Made by a program: the position numbers and the translations under genes
The notes under the pieces: generated by a model
Told to the model about the DNA's origin: nothing
The model's input: the letters and a program-made list of their open reading frames with translations, nothing else
Database searches by the model: none
Source: Patescibacteria group bacterium
GTDB lineage: Bacteria; Patescibacteriota; Patescibacteriia; UBA1558; GWA2-36-10
Length of the DNA stretch: 64,000 nt
Direction of reading: 5' to 3'
Assembly: GCA_028718865.1 (NCBI GenBank)
Contig: JAQUKX010000003.1
Location: 33,214-97,213, forward strand
In this document: positions 2,826-60,051 of the stretch, piece by piece
Layout of the letters: each line of letters begins with the position of its first letter
How positions within the stretch are numbered: position 1 is the first letter of the stretch

Positions 2826-2879
2826 TTATATAATTCTGGAGGGAATTAGCTATACGCCCGATGATCAATAGAATCCGCT

Positions 2880-3060
2880 TGTCATCTCACGCTTTCCCTT
2901 CTGTTATTCCCGTCCCCACCTTCGCGGGGATAAACTCCAGCGGCTTGCCTGCTGACAGGCAGGGAATCTGGTCTTTCTCTTTCGTCATTCCCTCGAAAGC
3001 GGGAATCTACTTTGAGATAAAGAAAAGCTAGATTCCGGCTCGGAGGCCGGAATGACAAAA
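2880..3060. repeat. Cluster of modular hairpin repeats (GTCATTCC-N-GGAATCTAG family).
   Basis: Concatenated ~25-30 bp palindromic modules, e.g. TCCCCACCTTCGCGGGGA, GTCATTCCCTCGAAAGCGGGAATCTA and TTCCGGCTCGGAGGCCGGAATGAC. The same modules recur at 5765-5965, 6925-7140 and 7500-7650 in shuffled order and in both orientations. Confidence 0.7.
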
Positions 3061-3065
3061 AGATA

Positions 3066-3812
3066 TTAATCAAAATTTCTCTCACTGCCAACTATGACTT
3101 TGAGTTTTTGCGGCGCTACAGTGATTTCCACCGGAGTCTTCATGATGATTTGTTGGTCAGTTAAAATAGATACTTGATCTTCCTGATTGCTGCCGATTTT
3201 AATTTTGGTAAAAGGCAAAATAGTTTCCGCTATTTTTTTTGAGCCAAAAAGCCCTGATTTTATAGGGGTAATCACTGCTTCTAGTATGCCATCAATAGGG
3301 TTGGACATGGACAGATTTTCATTGGTAGCGAAGTTGTAAAGAGTGATTTTATTTTTTTTGGTAGTGGGCTCTACTTTGAAATCATTGTATTCTATCACTA
3401 CGTCACCGTTTTCAATTTCAGCTGTGTTGATAAAATAGTGGTTGTTTATCTTGCCCAAGTCTATTTTTTTGATAATTCTAGAAGCCAGTACTTCGCAAGC
3501 AGCTTCTTTGGGCGGGATGCCCAGTATTTTGGCAATATTGTTATTGTTGTCTACTGGGATTAACCCTAGAGTCAAATCAAGATCTGCTACGATATTGATC
3601 ACCTTGGCAAAAGTCTGAGCATTGCCAATAGCCACAACCGTATGAATCCCCTCTTTGGCTGCGTCATTTATCAACTCTTTCATGTTTTTGAGTACAGACA
3701 AACGGGCGATTTTTCCTTTAATACCCAAATCAGTCAACCTTTTTTCTATTTTGATCAAAAGGTCAGTGTATTTTTTTTCATTTAAAAAAGAGTCGTAAAT
3801 GTATAAATACAT
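3066..3812 (-). CDS. Diacylglycerol/lipid kinase catalytic-domain protein (YegS/DagK-like).
   Basis: 248 aa; the N-terminal ...IHTVVAIGNAQTFAKVINIV... region matches the DAGK_cat fold arrangement. This is homology inference only. Confidence 0.5.
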   Translation of the reverse strand: MYLYIYDSFLNEKKYTDLLIKIEKRLTDLGIKGKIARLSVLKNMKELINDAAKEGIHTVVAIGNAQTFAKVINIVADLDLTLGLIPVDNNNNIAKILGIPPKEAACEVLASRIIKKIDLGKINNHYFINTAEIENGDVVIEYNDFKVEPTTKKNKITLYNFATNENLSMSNPIDGILEAVITPIKSGLFGSKKIAETILPFTKIKIGSNQEDQVSILTDQQIIMKTPVEITVAPQKLKVIVGSERNFD

Positions 3813-3826
3813 AAAAAATAAGAATT

Positions 3827-4255
3827 TTATTTTTCCTCAACTGTTTCCTTGGCTGATTTTGGCTTAGAAACCGGACTCTCGTCTTGATAGCTGATGTTGC
3901 TCACCGGCATATCAATATTGCCTTTGATTAGGGCTCCGCTTTCCATAGACAGAACTTGAGTTTTGACATCACCTAGAACAAGAGCAGTGCTGCTGAGCTC
4001 TAGCTTTCCTTTGATATGGATATTGCCCTTGACCTTTCCTGAAATAAAAGCATTATTGGCGCTAATATTAGCCTGAATTATAGCATTAGTGCCTATTTTG
4101 AGGTTGTTTTTGGTTTTGATATTGCCTATCAAAACACCTTCGATAATTAAATCTCCTTCGCCTTTGAAATCGCCTTCTACTTTGACAGATGGGCCAATGA
4201 TAGTTTCAACTCCTTTGGAGCTAGGAGCAGCACTGCTTTGCTGTTTATTAAACAT
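3827..4255 (-). CDS. Bactofilin-family cytoskeletal protein.
   Basis: 142 aa of repetitive beta-helix-like segments (GNIKTKNNLKIGTNAIIQANISANNAFISGKVKGNIHIKGKLEL) typical of the bactofilin DUF583 family. Confidence 0.65.
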   Translation of the reverse strand: MFNKQQSSAAPSSKGVETIIGPSVKVEGDFKGEGDLIIEGVLIGNIKTKNNLKIGTNAIIQANISANNAFISGKVKGNIHIKGKLELSSTALVLGDVKTQVLSMESGALIKGNIDMPVSNISYQDESPVSKPKSAKETVEEK

Positions 4256-4515
4256 ATTTTTTATATTTAGACAATTTAATTATAGAGATTTTCTGTTCCT
4301 TTATATTAGCTAAATTAGCGTTTAATGTAAAGAGCATGGACTTTTTTTGCTAGCTATATTAGAATATTTAAAGTAAAAAATGTTCTTATTTTATTTCAGG
4401 GGCATTAAAAATAGGGTAAAATTAAACAACTAAGCTATAAAATATATATTACGACACATTATTTATACTAATATAAAATAGAAAGTAAAAATTTAGTTAA
4501 AATCAAAACCCCTCT

Positions 4516-4590
4516 GACCCCATAGTTTAATGGATAAAACAAGAATCTCCTAAGTTCTGGATCCAGGTTCGATTCCTGGTGGGGTCACCA
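4516..4590 (+). tRNA. tRNA-Arg (anticodon CCT).
   Basis: Cloverleaf with acceptor GACCCCA/TGGGGTC, anticodon stem AGAAT/GTTCT, loop CTCCTAA, T-loop GGTTCGATTCC, and an encoded CCA. Confidence 0.8.
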
Positions 4591-4728
4591 CTTTTTAAAC
4601 CAAACAAAAGACAAAAAAGCACTTTCGTGCTATGATAAAAATATGAGTGCTAGCGACGAAGAAAATCAGTCTGTTTTTAATAAAAATTTAATCCTAATTT
4701 AAATAGGGCTTTTGGCCTGTTTTTTTAT

Positions 4729-5706
4729 TTGTCTATGCTTATAATCACTTTACTTATTTTGGTGTTTTTATCATCTTGGTTTTCCGGTATGGAAATCGCC
4801 ATGTTTTCGCTAACACCAGCCAAGGTAAAAGAGTTGGTTTTGGCCAAAAAGAAAAACGCCTTGCTTTTGGAGAGGCTTTTAAGCAAGAAACACCGGCTTT
4901 TGGTAGTAATTCTTTTGGGCAATAATTTGATAAATATAGTGGCAGCCAGCTTAGCAGCCGTAGCAGCAGTTGAAGCTTTTGGCTCCATTGGCGTGGGTTT
5001 GGCTACTGGCATTATGACTATTTTGATTTTGATCTTTGGTGAAATGTACCCCAAAGCCTATTATCAAATTCATGCGGCCAAAGTAGCTCTGCGCTTTAGT
5101 CCGTTGATTTATGTTTTACAAATTGTTCTTTGGCCTATAGTAGTACTTTTGGAAAAACTGCTCAATATTTTGACTGGCAATAAAAAAAGGGAAAAAGTTT
5201 CGGAAAAAGAGTTCAAAGCCTTGAGCCGTTTGGCTGTAGAAAAAGGAGTTTTGCAATTTAAAGAGCACGAGATGATTATGAATGTGTTGGAGTTCAATGA
5301 CATCAAAGTCAAGCAAATAATGGTACCAAAGTATAAAATGGAGCTTTTGCAGGCGGATGCTCATATTGATCAGGTGGCTTATTTTGTTGGCCAAACAGGC
5401 TTTTCTCGCTATCCAGTTTATCGTAATCAAAAAAACAATGTAATTGGCTATGTCCATGCCATTAGTATTTTGCAAGCCTTAAATAGCGAAAAAAGAGAAG
5501 ATCCAATTTTTGGCTTAGTTAAGCCAATTTTGAAAGTGAATGAAGAAGATAAAATCAATTTGGTGTTTAATCGCATGATCAAAACTCATACTCATATGGC
5601 TTTGGTTTTTAGAAAAAAAGAAGTGGTAGGATTGGTAACTTTAGAAGACTTATTGGAAGAAATAGTTGGAGAAATCAGAGATGAGACCGATGAACCGATT
5701 TCTTAG
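4729..5706 (+). CDS. HlyC/CorC-family (CNNM) transporter with DUF21 plus CBS domains.
   Basis: 325 aa with four N-terminal TM helices, then CBS-pair-like segments (…KVKQIMVPKYKM…VIGYVHAISIL…) and a C-terminal CorC-like region. Confidence 0.7.
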   Translation: MSMLIITLLILVFLSSWFSGMEIAMFSLTPAKVKELVLAKKKNALLLERLLSKKHRLLVVILLGNNLINIVAASLAAVAAVEAFGSIGVGLATGIMTILILIFGEMYPKAYYQIHAAKVALRFSPLIYVLQIVLWPIVVLLEKLLNILTGNKKREKVSEKEFKALSRLAVEKGVLQFKEHEMIMNVLEFNDIKVKQIMVPKYKMELLQADAHIDQVAYFVGQTGFSRYPVYRNQKNNVIGYVHAISILQALNSEKREDPIFGLVKPILKVNEEDKINLVFNRMIKTHTHMALVFRKKEVVGLVTLEDLLEEIVGEIRDETDEPIS

Positions 5707-5764
5707 GAATCAAAATTTTTTGGCTAATACTATATAAAAAACATCTTAAGAAGGTGTTTTTATG

Positions 5765-5965
5765 TTGGAAGTGATTTTCTTTGTCATTCCGATTCCGCCT
5801 GCGCCTGTGGGCTTCGGCGGACAAGCGAGACGAGTGAAACGAGGCGAGTGGAGGAATCTAGTTTTTTCTTTTCGTCATTCCGGCCCCCGAGCCGGAATCT
5901 AGTCTTTCCTTATCTCAAAGTAGATTCCCGCTTTCGCGGGAATGACGAAATAAAAATAATCGTCA
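5765..5965. repeat. Modular hairpin repeat cluster (same family as 2880-3060).
   Basis: Contains TTCGTCATTCCGGCCCCCGAGCCGGAATCTAGTCTTTCCTTATCTCAAAGTAGATTCCCGCTTTCGCGGGAATGACGAAATAAAAA. About 110 bp (5851-5960) reappears identically at 7041-7140. Confidence 0.75.
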
Positions 5966-6133
5966 TTGTAAGACTTTAGGTCTTTAATTTATAATTTTTT
6001 AGGTTTTAAGATAAGAAAAAACTCCGTCTCACTCGCCATTGTGCGAGAGTATTGAGACGGAGTGTTGAGGACTGGCTGATCTGCCAGTTGGAAGTGTTAG
6101 CCGGTCTTTGCTCCTGTGGAGCTACGACAAGAC

Positions 6134-6820
6134 TCAGGAAACTGACTGACGAGCGCGCAGAAAGCCAACGGCAAAGCCAGGAAAGAACCAGCCGACGCGG
6201 AGCCTGCCATTGCCAGCAAGCCAGAAGACGCACGGCACGCCGCCATCGCGGCCGCGCGAACCGGCGCAGAGAGTCCAGTTCTGGACATCAAGATGCTCGT
6301 TGGTCTCCGAGAAATACTTGAGCTCGTAGACCAGCCGCTCGAGCAGAGTCATGGCGTTGACGCCCTGCTGACGAAGCTTGTTGGCCGACAGATTTTTAAG
6401 TTCCTCGTCGGCCTCCACCCGCTCGCGAATCCGAATCGCGTAGTTGCAATCCGAGACACGAACGTTATCAATGACGTCCTTGTCCAGGTCGTCGATGTAG
6501 CTCGACACCGGAAAACACTTCTTCATGGCCTTGAGCACATCGTTGAGCTTCAACCCCTTGGGGATGAAGATGACGCGGTCAAAACCGCCGGCGTTGTCGG
6601 GGATCGAGGCATCGGAGAAGCTCACCGACAAGCGGAAGTACTTGCGGTAGAACTCCTGCCACTCGGACTGAATGTCGGAAATGGCGAAGGGATTCTGACG
6701 CTGGAGGAAAAGCTCCAGCTCTCGCACGGTGATCACACCGTGCTGCAGCTTGTGCATCAGGTCTGCCAGCAAGCCAAGCACTTTGCTCGGCAAGCTACCG
6801 ATCACTTGCTTCTTGCTCAT
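6134..6820 (-). CDS. DGR variable (target) protein, remote paralogue of 24717-25400. GC-rich with a C-terminal variable region.
   Basis: 228 aa and about 65% identical to the 24717-25400 product (shared NPFAISDIQSEWQEFYRKYF...GGFDRVIFIPKGLKLNDVL...RARQSVS). Its C-terminal ~35 codons align to the TR at 25687-25802, with most differences at TR adenines. It has its own TTGACA promoter and GAAAGGAA SD at 6822-6900 and an intrinsic terminator at 6010-6060. Confidence 0.75.
   Translation of the reverse strand: MSKKQVIGSLPSKVLGLLADLMHKLQHGVITVRELELFLQRQNPFAISDIQSEWQEFYRKYFRLSVSFSDASIPDNAGGFDRVIFIPKGLKLNDVLKAMKKCFPVSSYIDDLDKDVIDNVRVSDCNYAIRIRERVEADEELKNLSANKLRQQGVNAMTLLERLVYELKYFSETNEHLDVQNWTLCAGSRGRDGGVPCVFWLAGNGRLRVGWFFPGFAVGFLRARQSVS
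6146..6262 (-). other. DGR variable region VR2 at the 3' end of the remote target gene.
   Basis: Minus-strand sequence GGTTCGCGCGGCCGCGATGGCGGCGTGCCGTGCGTC...CTGCGCGCTCGTCAG aligns along its length with the TR. The 3' 15 nt (CTGCGCGCTCGTCAG, an IMH-like invariant) are identical. Substitutions are mostly at TR A positions, plus a few non-A changes. Confidence 0.7.
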
Positions 6821-6924
6821 GATCAGTTTCCTTTCATGTAAAGGTTCTAGGTATTACCTCGGCCAATTCCGAAGTAATGTATAAGCATAGCTATATTTAC
6901 TATTTTGTCAATGTTTTGGAGTTG

Positions 6925-7140
6925 TCATTCCCGCGAAGGCGGGAATCTAGCCTCTTTTTGGTTCAAAGTAGATTTCTCGACTACGCTCGAAATGACAGAA
7001 GGGAAAGGCTAGATCCCGCAATCCGCCAGCTGGCGGACGAGTGGAGGAATCTAGTTTTTTCTTTTCGTCATTCCGGCCCCCGAGCCGGAATCTAGTCTTT
7101 CCTTATCTCAAAGTAGATTCCCGCTTTCGCGGGAATGACG
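6925..7140. repeat. Modular hairpin repeat cluster.
   Basis: Modules GTCATTCCCGCGAAGGCGGGAATCTAG and others, plus the exact ~110-bp copy of 5851-5960. It flanks the remote DGR target on the opposite side to the 5765-5965 cluster. Confidence 0.75.
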
Positions 7141-7221
7141 AAATAAAAAATCATGGTTTGACATTTGACAATTAGCATGCTATGATACCCCCATAGGGTA
7201 TAATGATATTTATTTAAAACA

Positions 7222-7482
7222 ATGAAAAAAGCCTGTTGTCCAGAAAAAATAATTTCCCAGCTCCATCGTATTGAAGGGCAAGTGCGTTCGGTGGAGAAAA
7301 TGTATAATGAAAAAAGGGACATTGAAGAAATTGCCAGAGTAGTCAAGGCTGCTCGGGCTTCTATGGATTCTTTGAGCAAACTGCTTATCAATGATAAGAT
7401 AAGTGGGTGCTATGATGGCAAAAAATCAGTGGATAAAAAAGAAGTTGGTCGCTTGATAAATATTTTATTTGATATAACATAA
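7222..7482 (+). CDS. CsoR/RcnR/FrmR-family metal-sensing transcriptional repressor.
   Basis: 86 aa; KIISQLHRIEGQVRSVEKMYNEKRDIEEIARVVKAARASMDSLSKLLI matches the RcnR/CsoR helix pattern. An N-terminal CC and an internal Cys are present. Confidence 0.6.
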   Translation: MKKACCPEKIISQLHRIEGQVRSVEKMYNEKRDIEEIARVVKAARASMDSLSKLLINDKISGCYDGKKSVDKKEVGRLINILFDIT

Positions 7483-7499
7483 AAAAGTTTAGAAATTAA

Positions 7500-7650
7500 C
7501 TAGATTCCCGCTTTCGCGGGAATGACAGAAGGGAAAGGCTAGATTCCCTGCCTACCGGTCTTCGACTCCGAGGTCGCTCAGACTTGAGGAGCAGGCAGGT
7601 CGCTGGAGCTTATCCCCGCGAAGGTGGGGACGGGAATGACATAAATAACA
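7500..7650. repeat. Modular hairpin repeat cluster.
   Basis: TAGATTCCCGCTTTCGCGGGAATGAC ... CCCCGCGAAGGTGGGGACGGGAATGAC. It is an inverted arrangement of the modules seen at 2880-3060. Confidence 0.7.
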
Positions 7651-10339: not shown

Positions 10340-10915
10340 ATGGCTAGAAAATGTATCATGGGCATAGATGAAGTTGGTCGTGGATCTTTAGCCGGACCAA
10401 TAGTAGCGGTTGCTTTGTTTTCTCAAGGCCTTCCCCGGGAAAAAGAGATTTTGGCTCAGCTAAAAGAATCAAAGTCTTTGACAGTTGCCAAAAGAGAATT
10501 TTTCTTTGCGCAAATTGTCGGCACTTTTCTTTGGTCAGTCAGTGTTTTGGATAATCAATTTATTGATCGCTATGGAATTCAAAAAGCTAATTTATTGGTT
10601 TTTCAGGAAGCCAGTGAAAAATTATTAAAAGAAATTGATCGACCAGTTGAGATTTTGGCTGACTACGTTGGTGGCGCTAGTGATTATTTACGTCAGATGT
10701 CTTTTTTTAAAAAAGGGGACAAGCAGTTTGCTGAGATTGCGGCTGCTTCTATTATTGCCAAAGTGTATAGAGATAATTTGATGGAGGAGGCTAGTCGGAT
10801 TTTTCCCTTGTATAATTTTGCCAGTAATAAAGGCTATGGAACTAAAGCACACTATAAAAAAATTTATCAATTTGGTTTATCTCCTTTACATAGAAAAAGT
10901 TTTATAAAAATTTAG
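10340..10915 (+). CDS. rnhB: Ribonuclease HII.
   Basis: 191 aa; the N-terminal MGIDEVGRGSLAGPIV motif is typical of RNase HII. Confidence 0.8.
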   Translation: MARKCIMGIDEVGRGSLAGPIVAVALFSQGLPREKEILAQLKESKSLTVAKREFFFAQIVGTFLWSVSVLDNQFIDRYGIQKANLLVFQEASEKLLKEIDRPVEILADYVGGASDYLRQMSFFKKGDKQFAEIAAASIIAKVYRDNLMEEASRIFPLYNFASNKGYGTKAHYKKIYQFGLSPLHRKSFIKI

Positions 10916-10955
10916 CCCCTGCTTTTGAGCAGAGGCTAGGATCTCGTGAAGGAAC

Positions 10956-11294
10956 TTAGCTGTTGTTGTTTAGGGAGCGAGGCTCCACAGCGCGGCCTTC
11001 ATTTAAGGCTCTTATGATTCCCTGGACCATGCCTTGGGATATGCCACGATCCAGATAGACGACAGTGGCCGTAGCTTTTTGGCCCCAGGCCAGCCCGGCT
11101 TCTATACCTAATCTTCTTTGTTCGGGCACAGTGTCGTCCAACACGCCCTCTTGAGTATAGAGTAGGTGAGAAGCAAAGGGTGCCTCGCCTCTCTTAAGAC
11201 AGTCAAGCAGGCAGGCGCGAGCGTATTGAATGTTGGTCGCCACTTCTTCAGGTGTACCAGCGAAAGGGCTTTCTATGATGACTAAACGTATCAT
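10956..11294 (-). CDS. Hypothetical protein with elevated GC (~52%), possibly horizontally acquired.
   Basis: Starts at MIRLVIIESPFAG, directly preceded by an AAGGAGGAG SD. The track ORF extends to 11354 without a good RBS. Function is unknown. Confidence 0.5.
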   Translation of the reverse strand: MIRLVIIESPFAGTPEEVATNIQYARACLLDCLKRGEAPFASHLLYTQEGVLDDTVPEQRRLGIEAGLAWGQKATATVVYLDRGISQGMVQGIIRALNEGRAVEPRSLNNNS

Positions 11295-11493
11295 GAGGAA
11301 CTCCTCCTTTGGTTTTGGCCTTGGATATTTGAGACAACTAATATTTATTAACATATAAAAAACATTTAGGCAAGCTATTGGTGGAAAGGCCTAGTTTGTA
11401 TTAATGTTGTTTTTCTATTTTTCATCGCCGCAGTTTTCTCAGAAATTTATTTTAAGAGCCGTCTCATTTTCATTATCCACAGACGGCTTTATT

Positions 11494-12143: not shown

Positions 12144-12383
12144 AGAGTTAATCAAAAGATAATTATTATCTTAGGCCAAGGCCTGAAGTTTGCCTGTATC
12201 TTCAGGCCTTGCCCAAGTGAATAATCTCAGAAGAAAAGCGATTTTTGAGACTTGGTTCACTGGTTGGTCTTTTTGATTGGGCAAAAAGATTGGCCGTTTG
12301 GTTCTTTAGCATCAAGCAAAGGAGGAGTAAGGCGATTTTTTCTCCCAAAAAACCAGAAACTTTCTTTTTCCAAGGAGAAAGCC

Positions 12384-13112
12384 ATGAAAGGCAAAGCGTT
12401 TCTTTTGGTTCTGCTGATTGCTGTCGGAGCAGCCCTGTGGCTGGCCGGCTGTGATCATCAGGAGGCCGGTCCAGTAGCGCCGGTGGCAGTGGAGCAGTCG
12501 GAAATTCTGCCCGATGAAAGCGAGGCTTTCAGCGAGCTGAACATTTCGGCCGAAGAAGTCAATGCAGCTGGGCAACTGGCTTATCAGGAGCAGGTCAGGG
12601 AAAACGGCGAGAAAAACGCCTGCGTTTCCGTGTATTTGCCCTATGTCAGTCAGCTGGACAGTCGCTGGAAAAACCAGTCTTTGGGCTACAACTACAATGG
12701 CACTTCTACGATAGGCAACCAGGGTTGCTATCTGACCTGTCTGGTGATGCTCTACCAGAAGTGGGGTTATTCTTCTATGACCCCGCCGGTGCTCAACAAC
12801 TGGTCCTACCAAGGGCAGGCGCATTACGCCTTTTCCACTTCCGGAAACGGCGATCTTATCTACTACCCTCAGGCCTTGCAGTACGGCTATATGAGCCGGC
12901 CCACTCGTTTTATCAGTAGTTACAATCTGATTTATAACGAGTTGGCAGCTGGTAGGCCGGTGGTCGCTCAGATTCGGACTGCAACTATGCCTAGCCACTT
13001 TGTGGTTATCTACGCCTTCAACGGCACCAGCTATTTAGTGCGCGATCCTTTGGGTCAGAGTAGTCGGCCTTTGTACGGCACTATTGTCTCCTTGCGAGTC
13101 CATGGTGTCTAA
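12384..13112 (+). CDS. Lipoprotein with a papain-like (C39-like) cysteine-peptidase domain; GC-rich (~55%).
   Basis: MKGKAFLLVLLIAVGAALWLAGC lipobox; Cys in GNQGCYLTC and His in PSHFVVIY, consistent with a C39-like peptidase. The track start at 12252 is upstream of the SD (AAGGAGAAAGCC-ATG), so 12384 is the more likely start. The antisense ORF 12312..12998 is spurious. Confidence 0.55.
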   Translation: MKGKAFLLVLLIAVGAALWLAGCDHQEAGPVAPVAVEQSEILPDESEAFSELNISAEEVNAAGQLAYQEQVRENGEKNACVSVYLPYVSQLDSRWKNQSLGYNYNGTSTIGNQGCYLTCLVMLYQKWGYSSMTPPVLNNWSYQGQAHYAFSTSGNGDLIYYPQALQYGYMSRPTRFISSYNLIYNELAAGRPVVAQIRTATMPSHFVVIYAFNGTSYLVRDPLGQSSRPLYGTIVSLRVHGV

Positions 13113-13195
13113 GGCCAAAGGGCGGGTTATGGTTATAACCCGCCCGAACATTCTTGTTTTATTTGTGATATAATTTGGTAGTCAGAACTTAGAAT

Positions 13196-19600: not shown

Positions 19601-19640
19601 AACACACTGGGATATCTGAAGTTGCCGAATTTACTTTTTT
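19598..19640. repeat. Degenerate L-type cassette site.
   Basis: CATAACACACTGGGATATCTGAAGTTGCCGAAT; compare the L consensus CATACAACAGACAAGCGTATCTGAAGTCCCGAA. A degenerate R-type site lies at 19155-19190 (GAACCTCGCATCCGCTGTTAGCGAACG). Confidence 0.5.
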
Positions 19641-20569
19641 CTTTCTCGGTTGTGAATATATTTGTCCAAAGCTTCTTTTGAGCTTAGCCAATTACGGCCA
19701 TCCTTTTGAGCTTCTAGTTTACCCTGTCTAGTTAGTAGATTAAGATATTTGGCTGAGTATGGTGTGCCTTTAGCTAAGACGGCCAGGGACACTAATTTTT
19801 CTTTAGTGTTTTGAGGGGCTAAAGTTTTAAGATAAATATCAAAAGATCTTTCTACTGTTTGAGCGATGAAATTTACAAGCGGAGCATAATCACCCTTGTC
19901 GGCTTTGGCTAAAACATTGTAGTATTTTTTTCGATCATTTTTAAGAATGATAGCTAGAGGATAGCCAGCTTTCATTAATATCAAATTCATAGCCAGTCTA
20001 GCAGTGCGGCCATTGCCGTCAAAAAATGGATGAATATGCACTAGTTTATGGTGAAACAAGGCGGCTAGCTCAATAGTAGGTATATTTTTAAAATTGTTTT
20101 TTAACCAAGCTAGTAGTTGTTCCATTAATTTCGGTACCTCATAGGCATCAGGCGGATTATGCGCAGCGCCAGCTATATAGACATTAGCACTTCGGTATTT
20201 GCCAGCTTGATCTTTTTCAGTTTCTTGCACAATGATTTGATGCAAAGAGCGGATCAATCTTTCAGAGACGGTATTTTGTTTATCGCTATCAATCAAATCA
20301 TATAGATACTCCAGAGCCGCATAATGGTTTTTGGCTTCTAGATGATCTTTGAGCGGCTTGCCTTTGACAGTAATGCCCTCATTGATCACTAAAAAAGTTT
20401 CTTTTAAAGTCAAGCTATTACCCTCGATAGCGTTAGAATTATAGGTCATCTCCAGTCTAAATCTTTCTTGCAGTTTTTTGACCCCGGCTTTAGGCAAGGG
20501 CCGTAATTTATTTAGTTCTTTTTTTTTTGCTTCTAGTCTAGAAGCAATTTGTTTATTTAAGTAATTCAT
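19631..20569 (-). CDS. Fic/Doc-family protein (cassette ORF).
   Basis: 312 aa with the canonical Fic motif HPFFDGNGRTARL. Confidence 0.8.
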   Translation of the reverse strand: MNYLNKQIASRLEAKKKELNKLRPLPKAGVKKLQERFRLEMTYNSNAIEGNSLTLKETFLVINEGITVKGKPLKDHLEAKNHYAALEYLYDLIDSDKQNTVSERLIRSLHQIIVQETEKDQAGKYRSANVYIAGAAHNPPDAYEVPKLMEQLLAWLKNNFKNIPTIELAALFHHKLVHIHPFFDGNGRTARLAMNLILMKAGYPLAIILKNDRKKYYNVLAKADKGDYAPLVNFIAQTVERSFDIYLKTLAPQNTKEKLVSLAVLAKGTPYSAKYLNLLTRQGKLEAQKDGRNWLSSKEALDKYIHNRERKK

Positions 20570-22295: not shown

Positions 22296-22327
22296 ACCTT
22301 AGTGTTAGTTAACAGGAGGGTAATACT

Positions 22328-22618
22328 GTGAAGAAAGTCGTTCTTATCATCATCGCGATCTTCGCGCTCCTGCTCGTTTCCGGTTGCGCCGGGACCAATT
22401 CGGTTCAGAACACGCCTGGTAGCAATGGCGTGGCTGGGTTCTGGTCTGGCCTCTGGCACGGCATGATCGCGCCGATCAGCTGGTTAATCTCCCTCTTCAA
22501 CTCCAACGTGAACATCTACGAGGTTCACAACAACGGTGGCTGGTACGACTTTGGTTTCGTGCTTGGCGCCGGGATTCTGGCCAGAGGGAGCCGATCCTCA
22601 CGTAGGCGCGAGCACTGA
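22328..22618 (+). CDS. Small GC-rich (~60%) lipoprotein; a self-contained expression unit inverted relative to neighbouring cassettes.
   Basis: MKKVVLIIIAIFALLLVSGCAG lipobox, GTG start with a strong SD, and a terminator hairpin ACTAGTTGTCCCTAACAACTAGTTTTCTTTT at 22630-22665. Confidence 0.6.
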   Translation: MKKVVLIIIAIFALLLVSGCAGTNSVQNTPGSNGVAGFWSGLWHGMIAPISWLISLFNSNVNIYEVHNNGGWYDFGFVLGAGILARGSRSSRRREH

Positions 22619-22734
22619 ACAAGATCATGGGTTTACTAGTTGTCCCTAACAACTAGTTTTCTTTTACATAAAAAATTTACAACTTTTTTATCTCATATCC
22701 GGTGTTGGGCGATGTTTATGAATTGACAAATTTA

Positions 22735-24617: not shown

Positions 24618-24716
24618 GCTTGACAGATTGTGGTATATATGGTATCATTATATATTACTTTGGGAATAAGCCTGAAGTAAGTACCTGAACAAAGTTTCAA
24701 TGAAAGGAAGCTGGTC
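24618..24716 (+). promoter_or_regulatory. Promoter and SD of the DGR target gene.
   Basis: GCTTGACAGATTGTGGTATATATGGTATCATTATAT (TTGACA ... TATCAT/TATAT) and the SD GAAAGGAAGCTGGTC-ATG. Confidence 0.5.
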
Positions 24717-25400
24717 ATGAGCAAGACGCAAGTGGTCGGCACGATGTCCGAATGGTCGGGCATTATCCGCGACATGTTCCGTCAGTTCGACGACGGCTCG
24801 TTGACCCTGGCTCACGCCAAGGCCTTCACCGAGCATCGGAACCCTTTCGCCATTTCGGACATCCAGTCCGAGTGGCAGGAGTTCTACCGCAAGTACTTCC
24901 GCATCAGCGTGGACTTCTCGGATGTCTCGATTCCTGCCGATCCCGGTGGCTTTGACCGCGTCATCTTCATCCCCAAGGGGTTGAAGCTCAACGATGTGCT
25001 CAGGGCCATCCGCAAGCAGTTCCCGGCTTGGAGCTACGAGGAGGATCTGGACAAGGACGTCATCGAGAACATCCGCAAGTCGGATCGCAACTACGCGATT
25101 CTGATTCGCGAGCGGGTGGAGGCCGATGAAGAGCTCAAGAACATCTCGGCCAACCAGCTGAAACAGCAGGGCGTCAACGCCATCACCCTGCTGGAGCGTC
25201 TGGTACTCGAGCTGAAGTACTGGTCCGAGACCGGCCAGCATCTCGATGTCAGCAACATCACCCTGTGCGCCGGTTCGCGCAGCCGCTTTGGTAGCGTGCC
25301 GAACGTCGACTGGAGCGCTGACTGCGGCAAGCTCCACATCTACTGGTTCAGCACTGGCCGTGCCAATGGCCGTCTGCGCGCTCGTCAGTCAGTTTCCTAA
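24717..25400 (+). CDS. DGR variable (target) protein with a C-terminal variable region; GC-rich (~60%).
   Basis: 227 aa. The last ~35 codons (…GSVPNVDWSADCGKLHIYWFSTGRANGRLRARQSVS) are encoded by the VR, which matches the TR at 25687-25802 except at TR adenines. The antisense track ORFs 24648..25337, 24752..24955, 25091..25339 and 25246..25434 are artefacts. Confidence 0.85.
   Translation: MSKTQVVGTMSEWSGIIRDMFRQFDDGSLTLAHAKAFTEHRNPFAISDIQSEWQEFYRKYFRISVDFSDVSIPADPGGFDRVIFIPKGLKLNDVLRAIRKQFPAWSYEEDLDKDVIENIRKSDRNYAILIRERVEADEELKNISANQLKQQGVNAITLLERLVLELKYWSETGQHLDVSNITLCAGSRSRFGSVPNVDWSADCGKLHIYWFSTGRANGRLRARQSVS
25271..25388 (+). other. DGR variable region VR1.
   Basis: 118 nt aligned to the TR with 16 substitutions, all at TR adenine positions (A>G ×10, A>T ×5, A>C ×1). 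A GC hairpin TCACCTCTTTCCCTTGAGGTGA lies just downstream of the IMH-like 3' end CTGCGCGCTCGTCAG. Confidence 0.85.
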
Positions 25401-25686
25401 CACTTCCAACTTTCACCTCTTTCCCTTGAGGTGAGATAGGAGTGTGCAATCACGCCCCGTGTGTGTCAATTCGTTTGACGCCCGGGGCTTTCTTTTTATA
25501 TAATAATCTCGGCTAATACAATCGGTCTTGATTTTTCAGGATAGCGATTTGCCATTTCTTTGGAAACTGCTTGTTAAGTTCTGGCTGGATTAAGTCCACA
25601 CATATTACAAACTCTTTGAAGTTTGACGATTAGTAATATTTATTTAATATCACTCGTCGGCCAAGATGGAATTTAGCAAAAATTGG

Positions 25687-25802
25687 GTTCGCGCAACCGC
25701 AATGGTAACGTGCCGAACGTCAACTGGAACGCTGACAACGGCAAGCTCCACATCAACTGGTACAACACTGACAATGCCAATGACCATCTGCGCGCTCGTC
25801 AG
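25687..25802 (+). other. DGR template region (TR).
   Basis: GGTTCGCGCAACCGCAATGGTAACGTGCCGAACGTCAACTGGAACGCTGACAACGGCAAGCTCCACATCAACTGGTACAACACTGACAATGCCAATGACCATCTGCGCGCTCGTCAG. It is rich in AAC codons, non-coding in context, and located just upstream of avd/RT. The track ORF 25666..26085 over it is spurious. Confidence 0.85.
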
Positions 25803-25838
25803 AAGTTTTCGACAAAAAAGTCCCGTTTTTACTCGGGA

Positions 25839-26198
25839 CTATTTGTTTAAATATTTTATCCACCCGCTCGCCATTTTCGAAATTTGCATCATTTTTTCAG
25901 CTAGGAGTAGGTATTTTTTGTCAGCGATTATTTTTAATTCCCACATTAGTCTAGTCAATCTTTTTGCTACTTCAATTTGTATCTTCAGTTTGGCAACCAC
26001 CACAGATTTTTTATCTCTAGCGGTCAAAGCCGCCAGTGTTCCTAATTCCAAACAATCAATGATAATATTTTCAATTTTTTGGTAAAGCCCAAAGCGTTCC
26101 ATTTTGGCAATTTGTTTTCGTCTGGTGTATAATTCCCGATATAAAGTAGTAAGCTCATGAATTATCGGCAAGCTAACATCGTTGGGGGGGGTAAACAT
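25839..26198 (-). CDS. avd: Avd-like accessory protein (four-helix-bundle family), tentative.
   Basis: 119 aa, basic/helical (…LYRELYTRRKQIAKMERFGLYQKIENIIIDCLELG…). Size and position between the TR and RT fit Avd. It is on the opposite strand and overlaps the RT start by ~40 nt. Confidence 0.45.
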   Translation of the reverse strand: MFTPPNDVSLPIIHELTTLYRELYTRRKQIAKMERFGLYQKIENIIIDCLELGTLAALTARDKKSVVVAKLKIQIEVAKRLTRLMWELKIIADKKYLLLAEKMMQISKMASGWIKYLNK

Positions 26199-27158
26199 AG
26201 TAGTCTTTTTTTAAAAATTATTTCTTTAGATAATTTGCTTTTATCATGGCGAGAATTTAAGCGTGGTAAAGCCACAAGGCGTGATATTCAGCAGTTTGCC
26301 TTTAATTTGGAAGAAAATATTTTTTGTCTTCACAAAGAGCTTGAAAATATGACGTATTGCCACAGTCCTTATCAGTCATTTTTCATCCAAGATCCAAAAA
26401 CTAGGCATATTCATAAGGCTGGCGTCAAAGATAGAGTTGTCCACCAAGCTTTATTTAGAGTATTATATCATTATTTTGATAAGAAGTTTATTTTTGATTC
26501 ATATTCTTGCAGGCTAAAGAAAGGTAATCATAAGGCTGTCTATCGCTTGGATAAGTTGATAAGAAAGGCCAGCCTTGATTATCAAAAACCAGTTTTTGCC
26601 TTAAAGTGCGATATCAGAAAATTTTTTGCCAACGTTGACCAAAAAATATTATTGTCTTTATTACAAAAAACTATTAAAGACCAAGATACTCTTTGGCTAG
26701 TTAAAAAAATTATTGATAGTTTTACATGTAGTCAAAATAAAGGTTTGCCTCTGGGCAATGTTACTAGTCAATTATTTTCCAATATTTATCTTAATGAGCT
26801 TGATTATTTTGTAAAACATACTTTAAGGCAAAAGTTTTATATCAGATATTGCGATGATTTTATTATTTTACATCAAGACAAAAAATATTTAGAAAATTTA
26901 GTTGCCACTTTAGCTAATTTTTTGCAAGCTAGACTAAAGTTAGATTTGCACCCTAATAAAATAACAATAAGGAAAGTAAATCAAGGTGTGGACTTTTTAG
27001 GTTATGTGGCTTTGACACGCTATCGAGTGTTGAGGACAAAAACAAAGAAGAGAATTTTGCGTCTTGCCAGTAGTAAAAATTTACAGTCTTATCTAGGAGT
27101 ATTACATCATGCCAATGCTTATGAATTAAAGCAGGTATTGATAAAAAAGATTGTTTAG
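26157..27158 (+). CDS. DGR-type reverse transcriptase.
   Basis: 333 aa; RT motifs HKAGVKDRVVHQAL (motif 2), LPLGNVTSQLFSNIYLNELD (DGR-specific [I/L]GxxxSQ in motif 4), RYCDDFII (YxDD) and GVDFLGY. Confidence 0.85.
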   Translation: MNYRQANIVGGGKHSSLFLKIISLDNLLLSWREFKRGKATRRDIQQFAFNLEENIFCLHKELENMTYCHSPYQSFFIQDPKTRHIHKAGVKDRVVHQALFRVLYHYFDKKFIFDSYSCRLKKGNHKAVYRLDKLIRKASLDYQKPVFALKCDIRKFFANVDQKILLSLLQKTIKDQDTLWLVKKIIDSFTCSQNKGLPLGNVTSQLFSNIYLNELDYFVKHTLRQKFYIRYCDDFIILHQDKKYLENLVATLANFLQARLKLDLHPNKITIRKVNQGVDFLGYVALTRYRVLRTKTKKRILRLASSKNLQSYLGVLHHANAYELKQVLIKKIV

Positions 27159-29290: not shown

Positions 29291-29430
29291 CGTGTTTTCC
29301 CTTATTTTAAGGGGATTTTAATTATTGACAAAATAACTAAAATATGCTATTATTATATGTTATGTGGCGCCGATGCCGTAACCCCCGCCTCAGGGATTGA
29401 GGTATATACTTCTCAGGAGGTTACTACACC

Positions 29431-29853
29431 ATGAAGCGCATGACCTACGTTCTTTCGATCGTGATCCTGCTGATCTCGTCCATGGCCTTCGCGGCCAGCC
29501 ACCCCATCGTCAACAAGGACGACACCGCCAAGGTTCCGAGCTGGGACTGGGTCGACGTCCTGAACCAGGAAGTCGTCTACAGCGGCAACAACGAGTTCAC
29601 CTACGGCGAGACCTGCGGCATCGAGTGCGGCGGCACCGTGACCGTCATCGGCGAGGTCGACGAGGGCAACGTCCTGGTACGCTACACCAGTCCCCATGGC
29701 CAGACCTACGGTACGCCTTGTCCCTCCGGCATCATCTTCCAGCTCTCCAAGGAGCGCTTCACGCTGATGACGGCGGAGTACCTGGCCAACATGAAGGCCG
29801 AGCAGGAGCACCGGCAGAAGATCGCCAACATCATCAAGGAAGCCGAAGGCTAG
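29431..29853 (+). CDS. GC-rich (~62%) secreted protein; inverted self-contained unit.
   Basis: Signal peptide MKRMTYVLSIVILLISSMAFAAS. Upstream TTGACA at 29327 and SD CTCAGGAGGTTACTACACC-ATG. Terminator TGAGCAAGTCATAAAACTGCTCACTCTTTTTTT. The overlapping track ORFs 29397..29873 and 29413..29877 are GC artefacts. Confidence 0.65.
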   Translation: MKRMTYVLSIVILLISSMAFAASHPIVNKDDTAKVPSWDWVDVLNQEVVYSGNNEFTYGETCGIECGGTVTVIGEVDEGNVLVRYTSPHGQTYGTPCPSGIIFQLSKERFTLMTAEYLANMKAEQEHRQKIANIIKEAEG

Positions 29854-30126
29854 GCCATCGGCGCCAGACCTGAGCAAGTCATAAAACTGCTCACTCTTTT
29901 TTTACTCAAAAATAAAATAACCTCGTAAGAGATTATTTATATAGAAAGGGGAAACACGATTTCACATAACATCGGGATTAAGGGAAGTTGCGACCGCAGG
30001 GAGCAATTTGGGAAAATGCCGAGCTGAGGCATTTTCCGTTTAAGCCCTGTTATACGCCCCGACGACTGAAAGGAGGAGAGCGCAGCGTGGTTCGACCGAA
30101 GGGAGAAAGTCCGCCGTAGCCCGCCG

Positions 30127-38227: not shown

Positions 38228-38331
38228 GCTCTTGACATATTATTAGATATATTATATTATAATATATCGGCTTTAATGGCCGAAACCCAGCTACGAGGCG
38301 GTCGTAGCAGTTCTTTCAAAGGAGTTGTCAC
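38228..38331 (+). promoter_or_regulatory. Consensus promoter and SD for the GC-rich ORF 38332-38859.
   Basis: CTTGACATATTATTAGATATATTATATTATAATAT (TTGACA ... TATAAT) and CAAAGGAGTTGTCAC-ATG. Confidence 0.5.
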
Positions 38332-38859
38332 ATGACGGCCAAGAATGCTGTCGCCGACGATGTCCTCGGACGGATCACTCGTAAGCTTCTGGACTTGTTG
38401 CGTCGAATCCTTGAGGGTTCGGTGGAAACCACTCGGGCCTCATTCTTCATCCAGCGTGCAATCGAGAATCCGCCGACCCCCAAGACCCCCGGTCCGGGAG
38501 AAGCGGGCATCTACGTACTCGAGAGCTACTGGTGCTACGACAAGGCGAACTACGATTTCGCTACGATCAGCTTGGAGTGGGGTGGTGAGCCTACTTGGTT
38601 TTTCGAAGATCTTCTCAAGGAAGACATCTCGGAGGACGCTAGGGGCTTTTTGCTGCGCACGCTTCGGCGGATTTACGAAGCGCAGATCCCAGATCATGGT
38701 CGGCGGAGGATGATGCGGCTCTATCGCGTCTCTTACCGCAATTGTCTGGGAAATTTCGAGGGTTCTCTGGGTCGTCCACTTCGTGACCTTCATTTCTCGC
38801 TTGAGCCTGTTTGTGAGTTCGACGAACAAGGCGAACCCCTTCCCGTCGGAACACTGTAG
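38332..38859 (+). CDS. GC-rich (~58%) hypothetical protein; inverted self-contained unit.
   Basis: 175 aa, no signal peptide. The overlapping ORFs 38345..38713, 38440..38871, 38639..39028 and 38328..38510 are GC artefacts. Confidence 0.55.
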   Translation: MTAKNAVADDVLGRITRKLLDLLRRILEGSVETTRASFFIQRAIENPPTPKTPGPGEAGIYVLESYWCYDKANYDFATISLEWGGEPTWFFEDLLKEDISEDARGFLLRTLRRIYEAQIPDHGRRRMMRLYRVSYRNCLGNFEGSLGRPLRDLHFSLEPVCEFDEQGEPLPVGTL

Positions 38860-38939
38860 TCTCAAGTACAAGGCAACATGATATCGTTCCCGCCGAGTAG
38901 CGTAAGCAAAAGGCGGGTTTTTTATTTGTATAAAATTTT

Positions 38940-39248: not shown

Positions 39249-40502
39249 TTATGCCCCAAAAGCAAATATTTGTTGTTGTGAATATGTGGGTTCTTCTATT
39301 TCTTCTTCAATCTCACCATTTAACATTTTTATTAAGTTGGTACCTATGTGATAGCCAAGATTTACTGGCACGGCATTGCCAATTTGTTTATATTGTTGAG
39401 AAACTGAGCCAGAAAATTTCCAATTGTCTGGGAATGTTTGTATTCTTGCATATTCTCTCACAGTGAGAGGCCTTGTTTCTTCTGGGTGACATCTCTCTGT
39501 TTGTTTTTGTGCGGGGCTACAAGTTAAAGTCAATGAAGGTTCATCCCAAGATAGTCTTCTTGCCATTCCAGTTTTGCCACCGCCCATATAAAAACTTGCC
39601 CCCATGTATTCTTTCTGTAAGTTTTCCGGTAAATCTCTCCAATATCCACCTGGTGGTATAAGTTTTAGAATTTTTTTCTTTTTTTCAGGGTACTCTTGTC
39701 CTTCAGATTTTGGACATTTATCAAAAGCTTCTCGTAGTGAAATTATATAGTCTTTTTCTTTTGGGAATACTATCGGAATATTTAGATCATTTCTAACGCC
39801 TATAATAATTAGACGCTCTCTTTTTTGCGGAACATCTAAATATTGGGAACGGAGGACTTTGTATTTTACCTTATAACCAATTTCTTCTAAAACAGAAATC
39901 ATAGTTTTTAAAGTTCTTCCATTATCATGAGTTAGTAAGCCCCGCACATTTTCACCAATAGCTATTTTTGGCTGTACTTCTTTTACACATCTGGCAAATT
40001 CAAAAAACAATGTTCCTCTGATATCTTCAAAACCCATTTTTCTTCCAGCGTATGAAAAAGTTTGACAAGGAAAGCCGCCCTGGACAATATCAGCTTGTCC
40101 TTTTGTAAATTTTAAATTACGAATGTCATCTTCAATTACATTCCAATGAGGTTTGTTTATTCTTAAAGTTTGGCAGGCGTGTTTATCATATTCATTTAAT
40201 AGAACGTGTTGAATGCCCGCATTTTCCATTCCTAATGCAGTGCCCCCAGCTCCAGCAAATAACTCAATAGCGGTGTAAGGGGATGATTCTTTATTTTTTA
40301 AAATTTTAAATTTATTGCTTTTGGTTCCTTGTGTTTTATTTTGTACCCGTTTGATTTCTTCTAAGCTAAAAATGCGGGCATTTTTGTCATCCCTAAAAGA
40401 TTTTACAAGGCCTCTTTTGTCCCAACGCCTTATTGTATCGACTGAAATGTTTAGTAGATTTGCTGTTTGACCAGCAGTAAAATGTTTTTGTTTATTTTTC
40501 AT
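39249..40502 (-). CDS. DNA (cytosine-5)-methyltransferase with an N-terminal MerR-like HTH.
   Basis: 417 aa; N-terminal QTANLLNISVDTIRRWDKRGLV; MTase motifs LFAGAGG (I), GFPCQTFSYAGR (IV), ENVRGL (VI), QIGNAVPV (X). Confidence 0.85.
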   Translation of the reverse strand: MKNKQKHFTAGQTANLLNISVDTIRRWDKRGLVKSFRDDKNARIFSLEEIKRVQNKTQGTKSNKFKILKNKESSPYTAIELFAGAGGTALGMENAGIQHVLLNEYDKHACQTLRINKPHWNVIEDDIRNLKFTKGQADIVQGGFPCQTFSYAGRKMGFEDIRGTLFFEFARCVKEVQPKIAIGENVRGLLTHDNGRTLKTMISVLEEIGYKVKYKVLRSQYLDVPQKRERLIIIGVRNDLNIPIVFPKEKDYIISLREAFDKCPKSEGQEYPEKKKKILKLIPPGGYWRDLPENLQKEYMGASFYMGGGKTGMARRLSWDEPSLTLTCSPAQKQTERCHPEETRPLTVREYARIQTFPDNWKFSGSVSQQYKQIGNAVPVNLGYHIGTNLIKMLNGEIEEEIEEPTYSQQQIFAFGA

Positions 40503-40567
40503 ATAAAAAATGATAGAGGATATCTATCATTAGTATATCATAATAACCACTGCCTATGCAAAGGTTA

Positions 40568-41275
40568 TTATGTGGAAAAAGCCATTTGGAATAATTTAAA
40601 GTATTCCCTCATTTCTTTTTGGCTAAGATTATATTTATGTTTGTCCATTATAACCTTTGGCAATACTTCAAATAATTCTTGTAGAGCCTTTTCTCTTCCG
40701 GTTGCCAGCGCATAAAAACTAACGCCATCTATAACTCTTATTTTATTGTTGGAAGGGCGGCGTTTTCCATTCTTTTTATTATCTGAAGGCACGAAGGGCT
40801 TGTCATATTTTTTCTTTCCTTGTGGTATGATCTCTACAAAGTAACCAGTATAACCACTATATCTTTCCATTTTTAATTTTGATTTTATTGAATCATAAAT
40901 CTCAACTTTATGGTTGCCTTTTGTAGTATTAAATTTATTTTTTACTTCCGCAATAATTTTCATTTTTTCATTTATGACGTCTAAGCCGCCCCCTTTACCT
41001 AAATTTTGCCAGTCATTAACAGAACCTAAAATATCTTGGTGAAAATCACCAATAGCATTTTGCATTGTTTTTTGAATTTGTCTAGCTTTTTCTAATTCCA
41101 GCCAGTCTTTACAAGATATTGAGTGAGTTACACCATGAAACAAGGCCGAAAAAGGGTCTATTACATTTTTATACAATTTTTTTTCTGCGTCATTTTCTGC
41201 AGCATCTATTACTGTAATAACTTTTTTTACTGCAGCGCATAGATCTTTGTCTGATATAAATTTTAGATAAGGCAT
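40568..41275 (-). CDS. Candidate type II restriction endonuclease, partner of the C5-MTase.
   Basis: 235 aa directly downstream of the MTase in the same cassette. Possible PD-(D/E)xK arrangement GLDVINEKMKIIAEVK. Assignment is by context only. Confidence 0.4.
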   Translation of the reverse strand: MPYLKFISDKDLCAAVKKVITVIDAAENDAEKKLYKNVIDPFSALFHGVTHSISCKDWLELEKARQIQKTMQNAIGDFHQDILGSVNDWQNLGKGGGLDVINEKMKIIAEVKNKFNTTKGNHKVEIYDSIKSKLKMERYSGYTGYFVEIIPQGKKKYDKPFVPSDNKKNGKRRPSNNKIRVIDGVSFYALATGREKALQELFEVLPKVIMDKHKYNLSQKEMREYFKLFQMAFST

Positions 41276-44982: not shown

Positions 44983-44993
44983 GTATTTATAAA

Positions 44994-58025: not shown

Positions 58026-59605
<1,580 letters not shown>

Positions 59606-59966: not shown

Positions 59967-60051
<85 letters not shown>

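Follow-up and report, generated by a model that had tools for sequence, protein, structure and literature searches.

What are the short palindromic modules that occupy several spaces between genes on contig JAQUKX010000003.1, and why do they enclose a gene that is diversified by a retroelement encoded further along the same contig? The stretch considered here, called the window throughout, comprises 64,000 nucleotides of this contig (assembly GCA_028718865.1). Its modules lie in four intergenic arrays, A to D, and arrays B and C flank the remote target of a diversity-generating retroelement (DGR). A preliminary description had called the modules REP/MITE-like (repetitive extragenic palindromic; miniature inverted-repeat transposable element). 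They are indeed intergenic palindromic repeats shuffled from a small vocabulary, but they are not an undescribed class. Sequence comparison identifies them as members of the published NTS/SRM hairpin-repeat family. Both this family and the enzyme that partners it have been described before; what is new is the host, one of the Patescibacteria (Candidate Phyla Radiation, CPR), the very compact form of the arrays and the DGR-target context. The CPR host had been presumed in the preliminary description and is confirmed by the protein of the gene between arrays B and C, which is identical to NCBI PHO91_01420 of a metagenome-assembled "Patescibacteria group bacterium".

The published Neisseria Transformation Sequence (NTS) is a 28-nt oriented hairpin, CGTCATTCCCGCGMAVGCGGGAATCYRG, that contains dRS3 (Chenal et al. 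2025, Nat Commun, PMC11893778). The dRS3 consensus is a 20-bp palindrome, ATTCCC-N8-GGGAAT (PMC1797815). The more general Ssn-related motif (SRM) is HGTCWYN(0-2)YYVSBRHN(0-5)WNVSBRGN(0-2)RNCYNB, and NTS-like motifs of this kind are found across bacterial phyla (PMC11893778). When an NTS is defined as in the search of Chenal et al. 2025, with at most one mismatch to CGTCATTCCCGCGMAVGCGGGAATCYRG, the window has four, at 5920-5947 (-), 6923-6950 (+), 7113-7140 (-) and 7500-7527 (-); a fifth match, at 2983-3010 (+), has two mismatches. Allowing up to three mismatches to the 28-nt consensus yields five matches in the window versus 0.00 in 100 dinucleotide-preserving shuffles. The SRM pattern also matches five times (0.12 in shuffles), at four true units and once by chance inside the local DGR target. 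The dRS3 palindrome occurs in five copies, starting at 2987, 5924, 6927, 7117 and 7504. The assignment to the NTS/SRM family thus follows from four units that match the consensus at 27 of 28 positions, from the dRS3 core, from the oriented flanks and from the potential to form hairpins in single-stranded DNA (ssDNA).

Canonical units are palindromes of 20-22 bp, and in single-stranded DNA they adopt an 8-bp hairpin. Their non-palindromic flanks, 5' (C/T)GTC and 3' C-YRG (C-T-A-G/C), are conserved and give each unit an orientation; in characterized NTS the flanks matter for binding and cutting by the nuclease SsnA (PMC11893778). Six short units are predicted to fold as perfect 8-bp ssDNA hairpins with dG of -8 to -9 kcal/mol and z-scores of -3.3 to -4.7 relative to shuffles; examples are the units at 3028-3056 (dG -8.0, z -3.8), 5874-5902 (dG -8.0, z -3.95), 5920-5947 (dG -9.0, z -4.0) and 6923-6950 (dG -8.9, z -3.3). 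The two-mismatch NTS at 2983-3010 has a broken stem and folds weakly (dG -3.6, z -1.1), and the fold of the degenerate unit at 6968-6996 is not significant against shuffles. For the long modules, and likewise for the TCCCCACC...GGGGA element that they contain, the predicted fold does not surpass that of shuffled sequences.

About 12 units are present in the four adjacent arrays, and there are none in the other 59 kb of the window. Repeat detection recovered the four intergenic clusters of the preliminary description and all three modules quoted there. These are GTCATTCCGGCCCCCGAGCCGGAATCTAG (5874-5902 and 7067-7095; the minus strand of 3028-3056 has a version that differs by one nucleotide), TAGATTCCCGCTTTCGCGGGAATGAC (5921-5946, 7114-7139 and 7501-7526) and TCCCCACCTTCGCGGGGA (2914-2931, with its reverse complement at 7612-7629). 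Unit ends of the form GTCATTCC...GGAATCTAG are conserved across the four arrays. The k-mers GTCATTCC, GGAATGAC, GGAATCTAG and CTAGATTCC are absent from the rest of the 64-kb window, except for one chance occurrence of GTCATTCC in the 16S gene. Neighboring units of the same orientation are joined by a 12-nt pyrimidine-rich linker, and units of opposite orientation by an 18-nt flip linker that ends in TCAAAG. The segments between palindromes consist of these linkers and of mosaic segments of 46-102 nt that are recombined among the arrays. The long segment of array A is an internal-deletion variant of that of array D. The arms of array A are inverted copies of array D (I3/I4, 88-91% identity) and, over 90 nt at 91% identity (I1/I2), of the right half of array B and that of array C. 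An exact duplicate had been noted at slightly different coordinates; it is a direct repeat of 112 bp with 100% identity (5845-5956 and 7038-7149) that flanks a GC-rich island.

Features of the repeat arrays and of the DGR in the window. Positions are those of the 64,000-nt window.
Feature	Position	Strand	Sequence or remark
Array A	2881-3057		Between yidC 3' end and 3' end of the diacylglycerol kinase (DAGK)-like gene; in order: eroded unit end, long mosaic segment, decayed NTS, inverted 22-bp-palindrome unit
Array A long mosaic segment (RS-like)	2903-2971	+	Bounds GTTATTCCC...GGGAATCTGG
Array A NTS unit	2983-3010	+	CGTCATTCCCTCGAAAGCGGGAATCTAC; 2 mismatches to published NTS, weakened stem
Array A 22-bp-palindrome unit	3028-3056	-	GTCATTCCGGCCTCCGAGCCGGAATCTAG; 8-bp stem
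Array B	5783-5947		Between CNNM/CorC gene 3' end and DGR-target 3' end; in order: long segment, 12-nt linker, 22-bp unit, 18-nt flip linker, inverted NTS
Array B long mosaic segment	5783-5861	+	GTCATTCC...GGAATCTAG; 79 nt
Array B 22-bp-palindrome unit	5874-5902	+	GTCATTCCGGCCCCCGAGCCGGAATCTAG
Array B NTS unit	5920-5947	-	CGTCATTCCCGCGAAAGCGGGAATCTAC; 1 mismatch to published NTS; SRM motif also matched
Array C	6923-7140		Between divergent promoters of DGR target and csoR; in order: NTS, flip linker, degenerate inverted unit, linker, long segment, linker, 22-bp unit, flip linker, inverted NTS
Array C NTS unit	6923-6950	+	TGTCATTCCCGCGAAGGCGGGAATCTAG; 1 mismatch; SRM motif matched
Array C degenerate unit	6968-6996	-	GTCATTTCGAGCGTAGTCGAGAAATCTAC; ATTTC/GAAAT variant, weak hairpin
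Array C long segment	7009-7054	+	CTAGATCCCGCAATCCGCCAGCTGGCGGACGAGTGGAGGAATCTAG; akin to inner part of long segment of array B
Array C 22-bp unit	7067-7095	+	Inside second copy of 112-bp repeat
Array C inverted NTS	7113-7140	-	Inside second copy of 112-bp repeat
Array D	7500-7640	-	Between csoR stop and trx start
Array D NTS unit	7500-7527	-	TGTCATTCCCGCGAAAGCGGGAATCTAG; 1 mismatch; followed by 12-nt linker
Array D long mosaic segment	7539-7640	-	102 nt
Island gene (remote DGR target)	6134-6820	-	
Variable repeat (VR) of island gene	6146-6262	-	3' 117 nt of the island gene
Island downstream hairpin	6021-6063		
Island gene promoter-like site	6911-6884		
Local DGR target	24717-25400	+	
Template repeat (TR)	25686-25802		
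Reverse transcriptase (RT) gene	26157-27158		

The island between arrays B and C (5957-6922, minus strand) has a GC content of 50-56% compared with about 36% for the genome, and it carries the remote DGR target. The DGR itself is complete within the window (24633-27158) and has a local target, a TR and an RT. As the preliminary description proposed, the array-bracketed gene is a remote target of this DGR: in the alignment of its VR to the TR all core mismatches fall at TR adenines. Both VRs share the 3' end TCAGTCAGTTTCC, which resembles an initiation of mutagenic homing sequence, and the TR has AAGTTTTCG in its place. In its non-variable scaffold (residues 1-185) the remote target shares 86% identity with targets from other Patescibacteria but only 68.5% with the local target of its own genome. 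The remote target is therefore not a recent internal duplicate, and its sequence suggests horizontal capture or old paralogy. One of the targets of the 86% type adjoins an RT of which 22 N-terminal residues are visible, with 95% identity to the window RT. The exact 112-bp repeat must be much younger than the island gene. It is a sign that arrays continue to recombine with one another, or of gene conversion or single-crossover integration. NTS units do not generally accompany this family of DGR targets. They are absent from six of the seven distinct loci that encode homologs of the target, and a general NTS-DGR association is therefore not supported. The remaining locus, Patescibacteria contig L141, has a convergent NTS-like pair at 1742-1851, GTCATTCCCGCGAAAGCGGGAGTC and an inverted GTCATCCCGGACTTGATCCGGGATC, just 3' of a DGR-target homolog (73% identity) and past the terminator-like hairpin of that gene.

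The arrays occupy the first intergenic regions beyond the rnpA-yidD-yidC operon. The window opens inside dnaA, of which the first 381 amino acids are visible on the minus strand, with rpmH (L34) as its divergent neighbor at about 1290-1430. The likely oriC is the space between these two genes (about 1150-1290), and the cumulative GC skew rises from there; the arrays lie 1.7-6.5 kb from dnaA and this presumed origin. The gene order is dnaA, rpmH, rnpA, yidD, yidC, array A, the DAGK-like gene (-), a bactofilin gene (-), tRNA-Arg(CCT), CNNM/CorC, array B, the island gene (-), array C, a csoR-like gene, array D, trx and trxB, with gdh, rnhB and ssb further on. A relative whose CNNM protein is 68% identical, compared by its gene table only, has the conserved order dnaA-rpmH-rnpA-yidD-yidC-DAGK-bactofilin-CNNM-X-csoR-trx-trxB. 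In that relative the yidC/DAGK gap is 100 bp, compared with 295 bp in the window, and the csoR/trx gap is 92 bp, compared with 185 bp. In a second relative, with a CNNM protein of 74% identity, units are absent from the sequence downstream of CNNM. It follows that the arrays were added to conserved intergenic sites in a lineage-specific way. The slot between CNNM and csoR holds the DGR target in the window, a PNP_UDP_1 gene in the 68% relative and an unrelated open reading frame (ORF) of 125 amino acids in the 74% relative, and is therefore a variable slot. The palindrome ATACCCCCATAGGGTAT (7185-7201), just upstream of csoR and over its -10 region, is conserved in the 74% relative (3' end of L188) and is probably the CsoR operator.

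These features suggest an explanation that we consider probable, though well short of established: the NTS/SRM hairpins would serve as ssDNA sites for an Ssn-type nuclease encoded elsewhere in the genome and would delimit a recombination-prone slot. SRMs are spatially associated with ssnA, a gene for a single-domain GIY-YIG protein of ~94 amino acids (cd10448), and SsnA binds and cuts the hairpin solely as ssDNA; in Neisseria meningitidis, an NTS in transforming DNA lowers the integration of that DNA (PMC11893778). By analogy with the characterized systems, the hairpins of the window would be bound and cut, as ssDNA only, by a single-domain GIY-YIG nuclease of ~95 amino acids like SsnA. An NTS-gene-NTS arrangement would then lower replacement of the enclosed gene by transforming DNA, and the repeats would also be recombination substrates. 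The arrays would have been added, in this lineage alone, to four neighboring intergenic spaces next to oriC, where they would mark the recombination-prone variable slot CNNM|csoR, now occupied by the remote DGR target. The exact 112-bp duplication would be a recent product of array-to-array recombination or gene conversion. A nuclease acting on these sites, and arrays that influence recombination or transformation, would both be expected under this explanation. A role in recombination is to that extent plausible, as the suggestion of recombination scars had it.

Several observations weigh against the nuclease-site explanation. A motif scan, tblastn and Pfam searches of about 50 ORFs revealed no GIY-YIG or Ssn homolog in the 64-kb window. 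All units of the window fall within one 4.8-kb stretch and genomes with expanded NTS usually carry hundreds, so this genome may carry few copies. About 61 kb of sequence from related Patescibacteria hold a single inverted unit pair, the one in L141. The long segments have no significant fold (z -1.5 for 2903-2971, -0.2 for 5783-5861 and -1.75 for 7009-7054). The main text of Chenal et al. 2025 names no Patescibacteria, and no paper linking NTS/Ssn to Patescibacteria was found in the literature searched.

Some of these observations are in keeping with the units being orphans, that is, decaying NTS repeats from horizontally acquired DNA or from a lost Ssn element, without a cognate nuclease and rearranged passively by RecA-type homology through duplication, inversion and cassette exchange. 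The absence of Ssn genes from the window and the restriction of the units to 4.8 of 64 kb fit such an origin, as do the degenerate units with a broken (2983-3010) or weak (6968-6996) stem and the absence of the units from most relatives. The inverted copies of ~90% identity between A and D and between A and B-C, together with the exact 112-bp repeat shared by B and C, fit recombination among arrays. Four units nevertheless keep 27 of the 28 NTS positions, including the non-palindromic flanks. Only under selection or after very recent arrival would one expect such conservation, and we judge the orphan origin unlikely, if worth serious weight. Mobilization of REP/BIME elements (BIME, bacterial interspersed mosaic element) by a RAYT (REP-associated tyrosine transposase, of the IS200/IS605-type Y1 class), or descent from MITEs of a conventional transposon, is far less credible. 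The units share with these elements a palindromic, intergenic and mosaic character and inverted doublets that resemble REPINs or BIMEs, and the 18-nt flip linker has a GTAG ahead of the inverted unit. That linker is the only place where GTAG occurs, however; most units have CTAG and not the conserved GT(A/G)G that directly precedes the palindrome in REP elements, no Y1 or other transposase is found among about 50 window ORFs, and no target-site duplications are visible. The sequence fits the NTS consensus, for which the partner is a GIY-YIG nuclease.

A role as transcription terminators, raised in the preliminary description, or as mRNA-stabilizing 3' hairpins, an RNA role like that of REP elements, appears improbable. 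Arrays A, B and D do lie at gene 3' ends, the three 22-bp units (and no other units) have terminator-like scores, each with a T-rich tail after its hairpin, and the expressed Francisella small RNA FtrB, to which the window has weak Rfam matches, includes an NTS-like hairpin. Array C, however, is placed between two divergent promoter-like sites. The yidC gene has a canonical bidirectional terminator of its own at 2798-2815, upstream of array A, the units occur in both orientations and mostly without a U-tract, and SsnA acts on ssDNA and not on RNA. It is likewise improbable that the 112-bp duplication, and with it the placement of the island between arrays B and C, stems from an assembly mis-join through the repeat. 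Short-read contigs of SRR22315506 that are identical to the window break exactly inside units, one of them inside the array D NTS (7500-7527); exact-protein look-ups with Trx and bactofilin led only to such contigs, 1.5 kb long. The repeat is moreover shorter than, or near, typical maximum k-mers. Against a mis-join, unique sequence passes straight into NTS units at either edge of the island (5947/5957 and 6922/6923), so the island is array-flanked wherever it is placed, and the same slot is variable in relatives.

Three other identifications were tried and rejected. The arrays are not a CRISPR (clustered regularly interspaced short palindromic repeats) array, as had been recognized before, since units occur in both orientations at irregular spacing, the linkers are themselves repeated, and no cas domain is present among the scanned window ORFs. 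They are not integron attC sites, for which the IntI integrase, the attI site and the R/L-box architecture are lacking. An Rfam scan gave no family above threshold. Its four matches to FtrB (24.6-29.8 bits, compared with a gathering score of 66) do not represent FtrB genes and arise because Francisella FtrB itself contains an NTS-like hairpin.

Comparison with characterized systems places the arrays closest to NTS/Ssn (PMC11893778), with which they share the consensus at 27 of 28 positions, the dRS3 core, oriented flanks, the ssDNA hairpin and NTS-gene-NTS clustering. The family spans phyla, and a small GIY-YIG gene adjoins the units in three of five other loci that encode one. The window differs in its patescibacterial host, where the text of Chenal et al. 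names mainly Pseudomonadati and symbionts (PMC11893778). It also differs in having no ssn gene in 64 kb, apparently few copies, a DGR target as the enclosed gene, and linkers of 12 or 18 nt instead of the ~50-150-bp RS elements. In the Neisseria intergenic mosaic elements (NIMEs), dRS3 copies flank families of RS elements of 19-214 bp, typically 50-150 bp (PMC1797815). According to Bentley et al. 2007 (PMC1797815), neither NIMEs nor dRS3 occur in other genera. As in those elements (Parkhill 2000; PMC1797815), ATTCCC-N8-GGGAAT palindromes alternate with reshuffled spacers in the window, the arrays stand next to hypervariable genes and have a dynamic content, and GC-rich palindromes lie in a context of lower GC. 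The differences are that the host is not a Neisseria, that the spacer families are unrelated and shorter, that the enclosed gene varies by means of a DGR and not by transformation-driven allele exchange, and that no Piv-type recombinase of an Nf phage was seen in the window.

Likenesses to the other systems are more limited. REP/BIME elements and REPINs are also short GC-rich extragenic palindromes in inverted doublets and mosaic clusters, and their maintenance is attributed to a domesticated nuclease or transposase, present in single copy, that recognizes ssDNA hairpins. Their consensus is different, their partner is of the HUH-Y1 class and not GIY-YIG, and the window has no RAYT. FtrB (Rfam RF02748, Francisella) contains GTCATTCCCGCGTAGGCGGGAATC, an NTS-like hairpin, but is a defined transcript of 115 nt, and the window matches cover the shared hairpin only. 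Integron attC sites, too, are imperfect palindromes that act as folded ssDNA and bracket promoter-less or mobile cassettes, whereas the gene enclosed in the window has its own promoter-like site.

Related units are widespread in other sequence collections. The pattern GTCATTCCCGC-N4-GCGGGAATC occurs in more than 120 IMG/VR viral contigs with a GC content of 0.32-0.72, including obvious Neisseria NIME arrays, and the 22-bp unit type occurs in 11 viral contigs. The flip linker followed by a unit was found in 25 metagenome contigs, most of them of low GC and many with the inverted-doublet layout. In such doublets the inner stem shows compensatory changes (CTGC/GCAG, CGAA/TTCG, CCGC/GCGG and CGCA/TGCG). 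The 3' extension CTACTTTGA and the inverted-doublet layout of the window recur in low-GC metagenome contigs. A query for the unit-linker-unit junction GGAATCTRGNNTTTNNNTTNNGTCATTCC returned no match in viral contigs and one match in the genome collection, a chance occurrence inside a coding sequence of a KSB1 metagenome-assembled genome (L123). The array architecture of the window was therefore not found in species-representative genomes. In viral contigs of other taxa (L007, L008, L022, L089 and L144-L150), many NTS copies come after a half-site, GTCATTCCCGC, and a pyrimidine-rich stretch of 9-10 nt. This arrangement resembles the 12-nt linkers of the window and may be a conserved feature of unit duplication.

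Candidate nuclease genes accompany the units in some of these loci. Single-domain GIY-YIG ORFs of ~95-100 amino acids (Pfam PF01541, E about 1e-16) are present in five fetched loci (L042, L003, L102, L166 and L186). Of the four checked for adjacency, three (L042, L003 and L166) have the gene directly beside units, and in L186 it lies ~1.7 kb from the unit matched by the scan. NCBIfam gave these ORFs sub-threshold matches to group-I-intron endonucleases only. With the low-GC GIY-YIG protein of L186 as query, the best 120 of at least about 8000 matches were all from Flavobacteriaceae, which is uninformative for Patescibacteria. The low-GC metagenome contig L166 (4400-5214) has a gene for a GIY-YIG protein of 101 amino acids (4772-5077), preceded by NTS-like doublets and followed by at least three tandem, divergent units of ~58 nt, GTCATTCAGAAGGAGGAACGACTGAAGAATCTCTAG. 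It is a textbook NTS-ssn-NTS element of different specificity.

Other features of the window were surveyed alongside the arrays. Further GC-rich islands (50% GC or more) lie at 10901-11300, 12251-13150, 22301-22700, 29351-30000, 38251-38900 and 42901-43350. They carry no NTS units, and the lack of any further TR match shows that they are not VRs of the DGR. Some hold ORFs without a Pfam match; 12252-13112 encodes a Peptidase_C39_2 protein. A type II restriction-modification pair (39249-41275), with both genes on the minus strand, consists of a C5 cytosine methylase with an N-terminal MerR-type helix-turn-helix (39249-40502) and an Eco47II-family endonuclease (40568-41275). In the region 58026-60521, genes for tRNA-Ile, Phe, Pro and Gly come after the 16S rRNA gene, with protein genes beyond them and no 23S gene; the rRNA genes are therefore unlinked, as is common in CPR. 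A Fic-domain protein is encoded at 19631-20569, and a Xer-like tyrosine recombinase at 43467-44366 adjoins tRNA-Leu and tRNA-Val (44895-45070). No link of either to the arrays was seen.

The arrays also bear on annotation, because they yield spurious ORFs and break short-read assemblies. ORFs of this kind are 2882-3091 (-), 2861-3031 (+), 6877-7095 (+) and 7092-7391 (-), and they encode peptide strings such as VIPAKAGIY, SFPRRRESS and SRFRGND. Strings of this type, which recur in "hypothetical proteins" of many bacteria, resemble read-throughs of NTS-type hairpins.

A bolder proposal, which we regard as speculative and rather unlikely, is that the NTS arrays serve to capture and shield target cassettes of DGRs. 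The array-flanked slot next to oriC would have received, by recombination, a target that is closer to those of other lineages than to the resident local one. The resident DGR would service the captured target, whose VR shows adenine-specific changes relative to the resident TR, and an Ssn-type nuclease, acting through the NTS-gene-NTS layout, would keep incoming transforming DNA from readily overwriting the diversified allele. If true, a diversity-generating retroelement would here be functionally coupled to repeats of an ssDNA-restriction system.

The identification of the modules extends the NTS/Ssn hairpin-repeat system to the Candidate Phyla Radiation, with a repeat almost identical to that of pathogenic Neisseria. 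The locus is a compact natural example of arrays that bracket a hypervariable, DGR-diversified gene in a variable slot, and it recalls Neisseria, in which an association of dRS3/NIME arrays with variable surface genes has long been noted. Patescibacteria rely heavily on DNA uptake, and repeats that restrict ssDNA or guide recombination would therefore be relevant to gene exchange in their small genomes.

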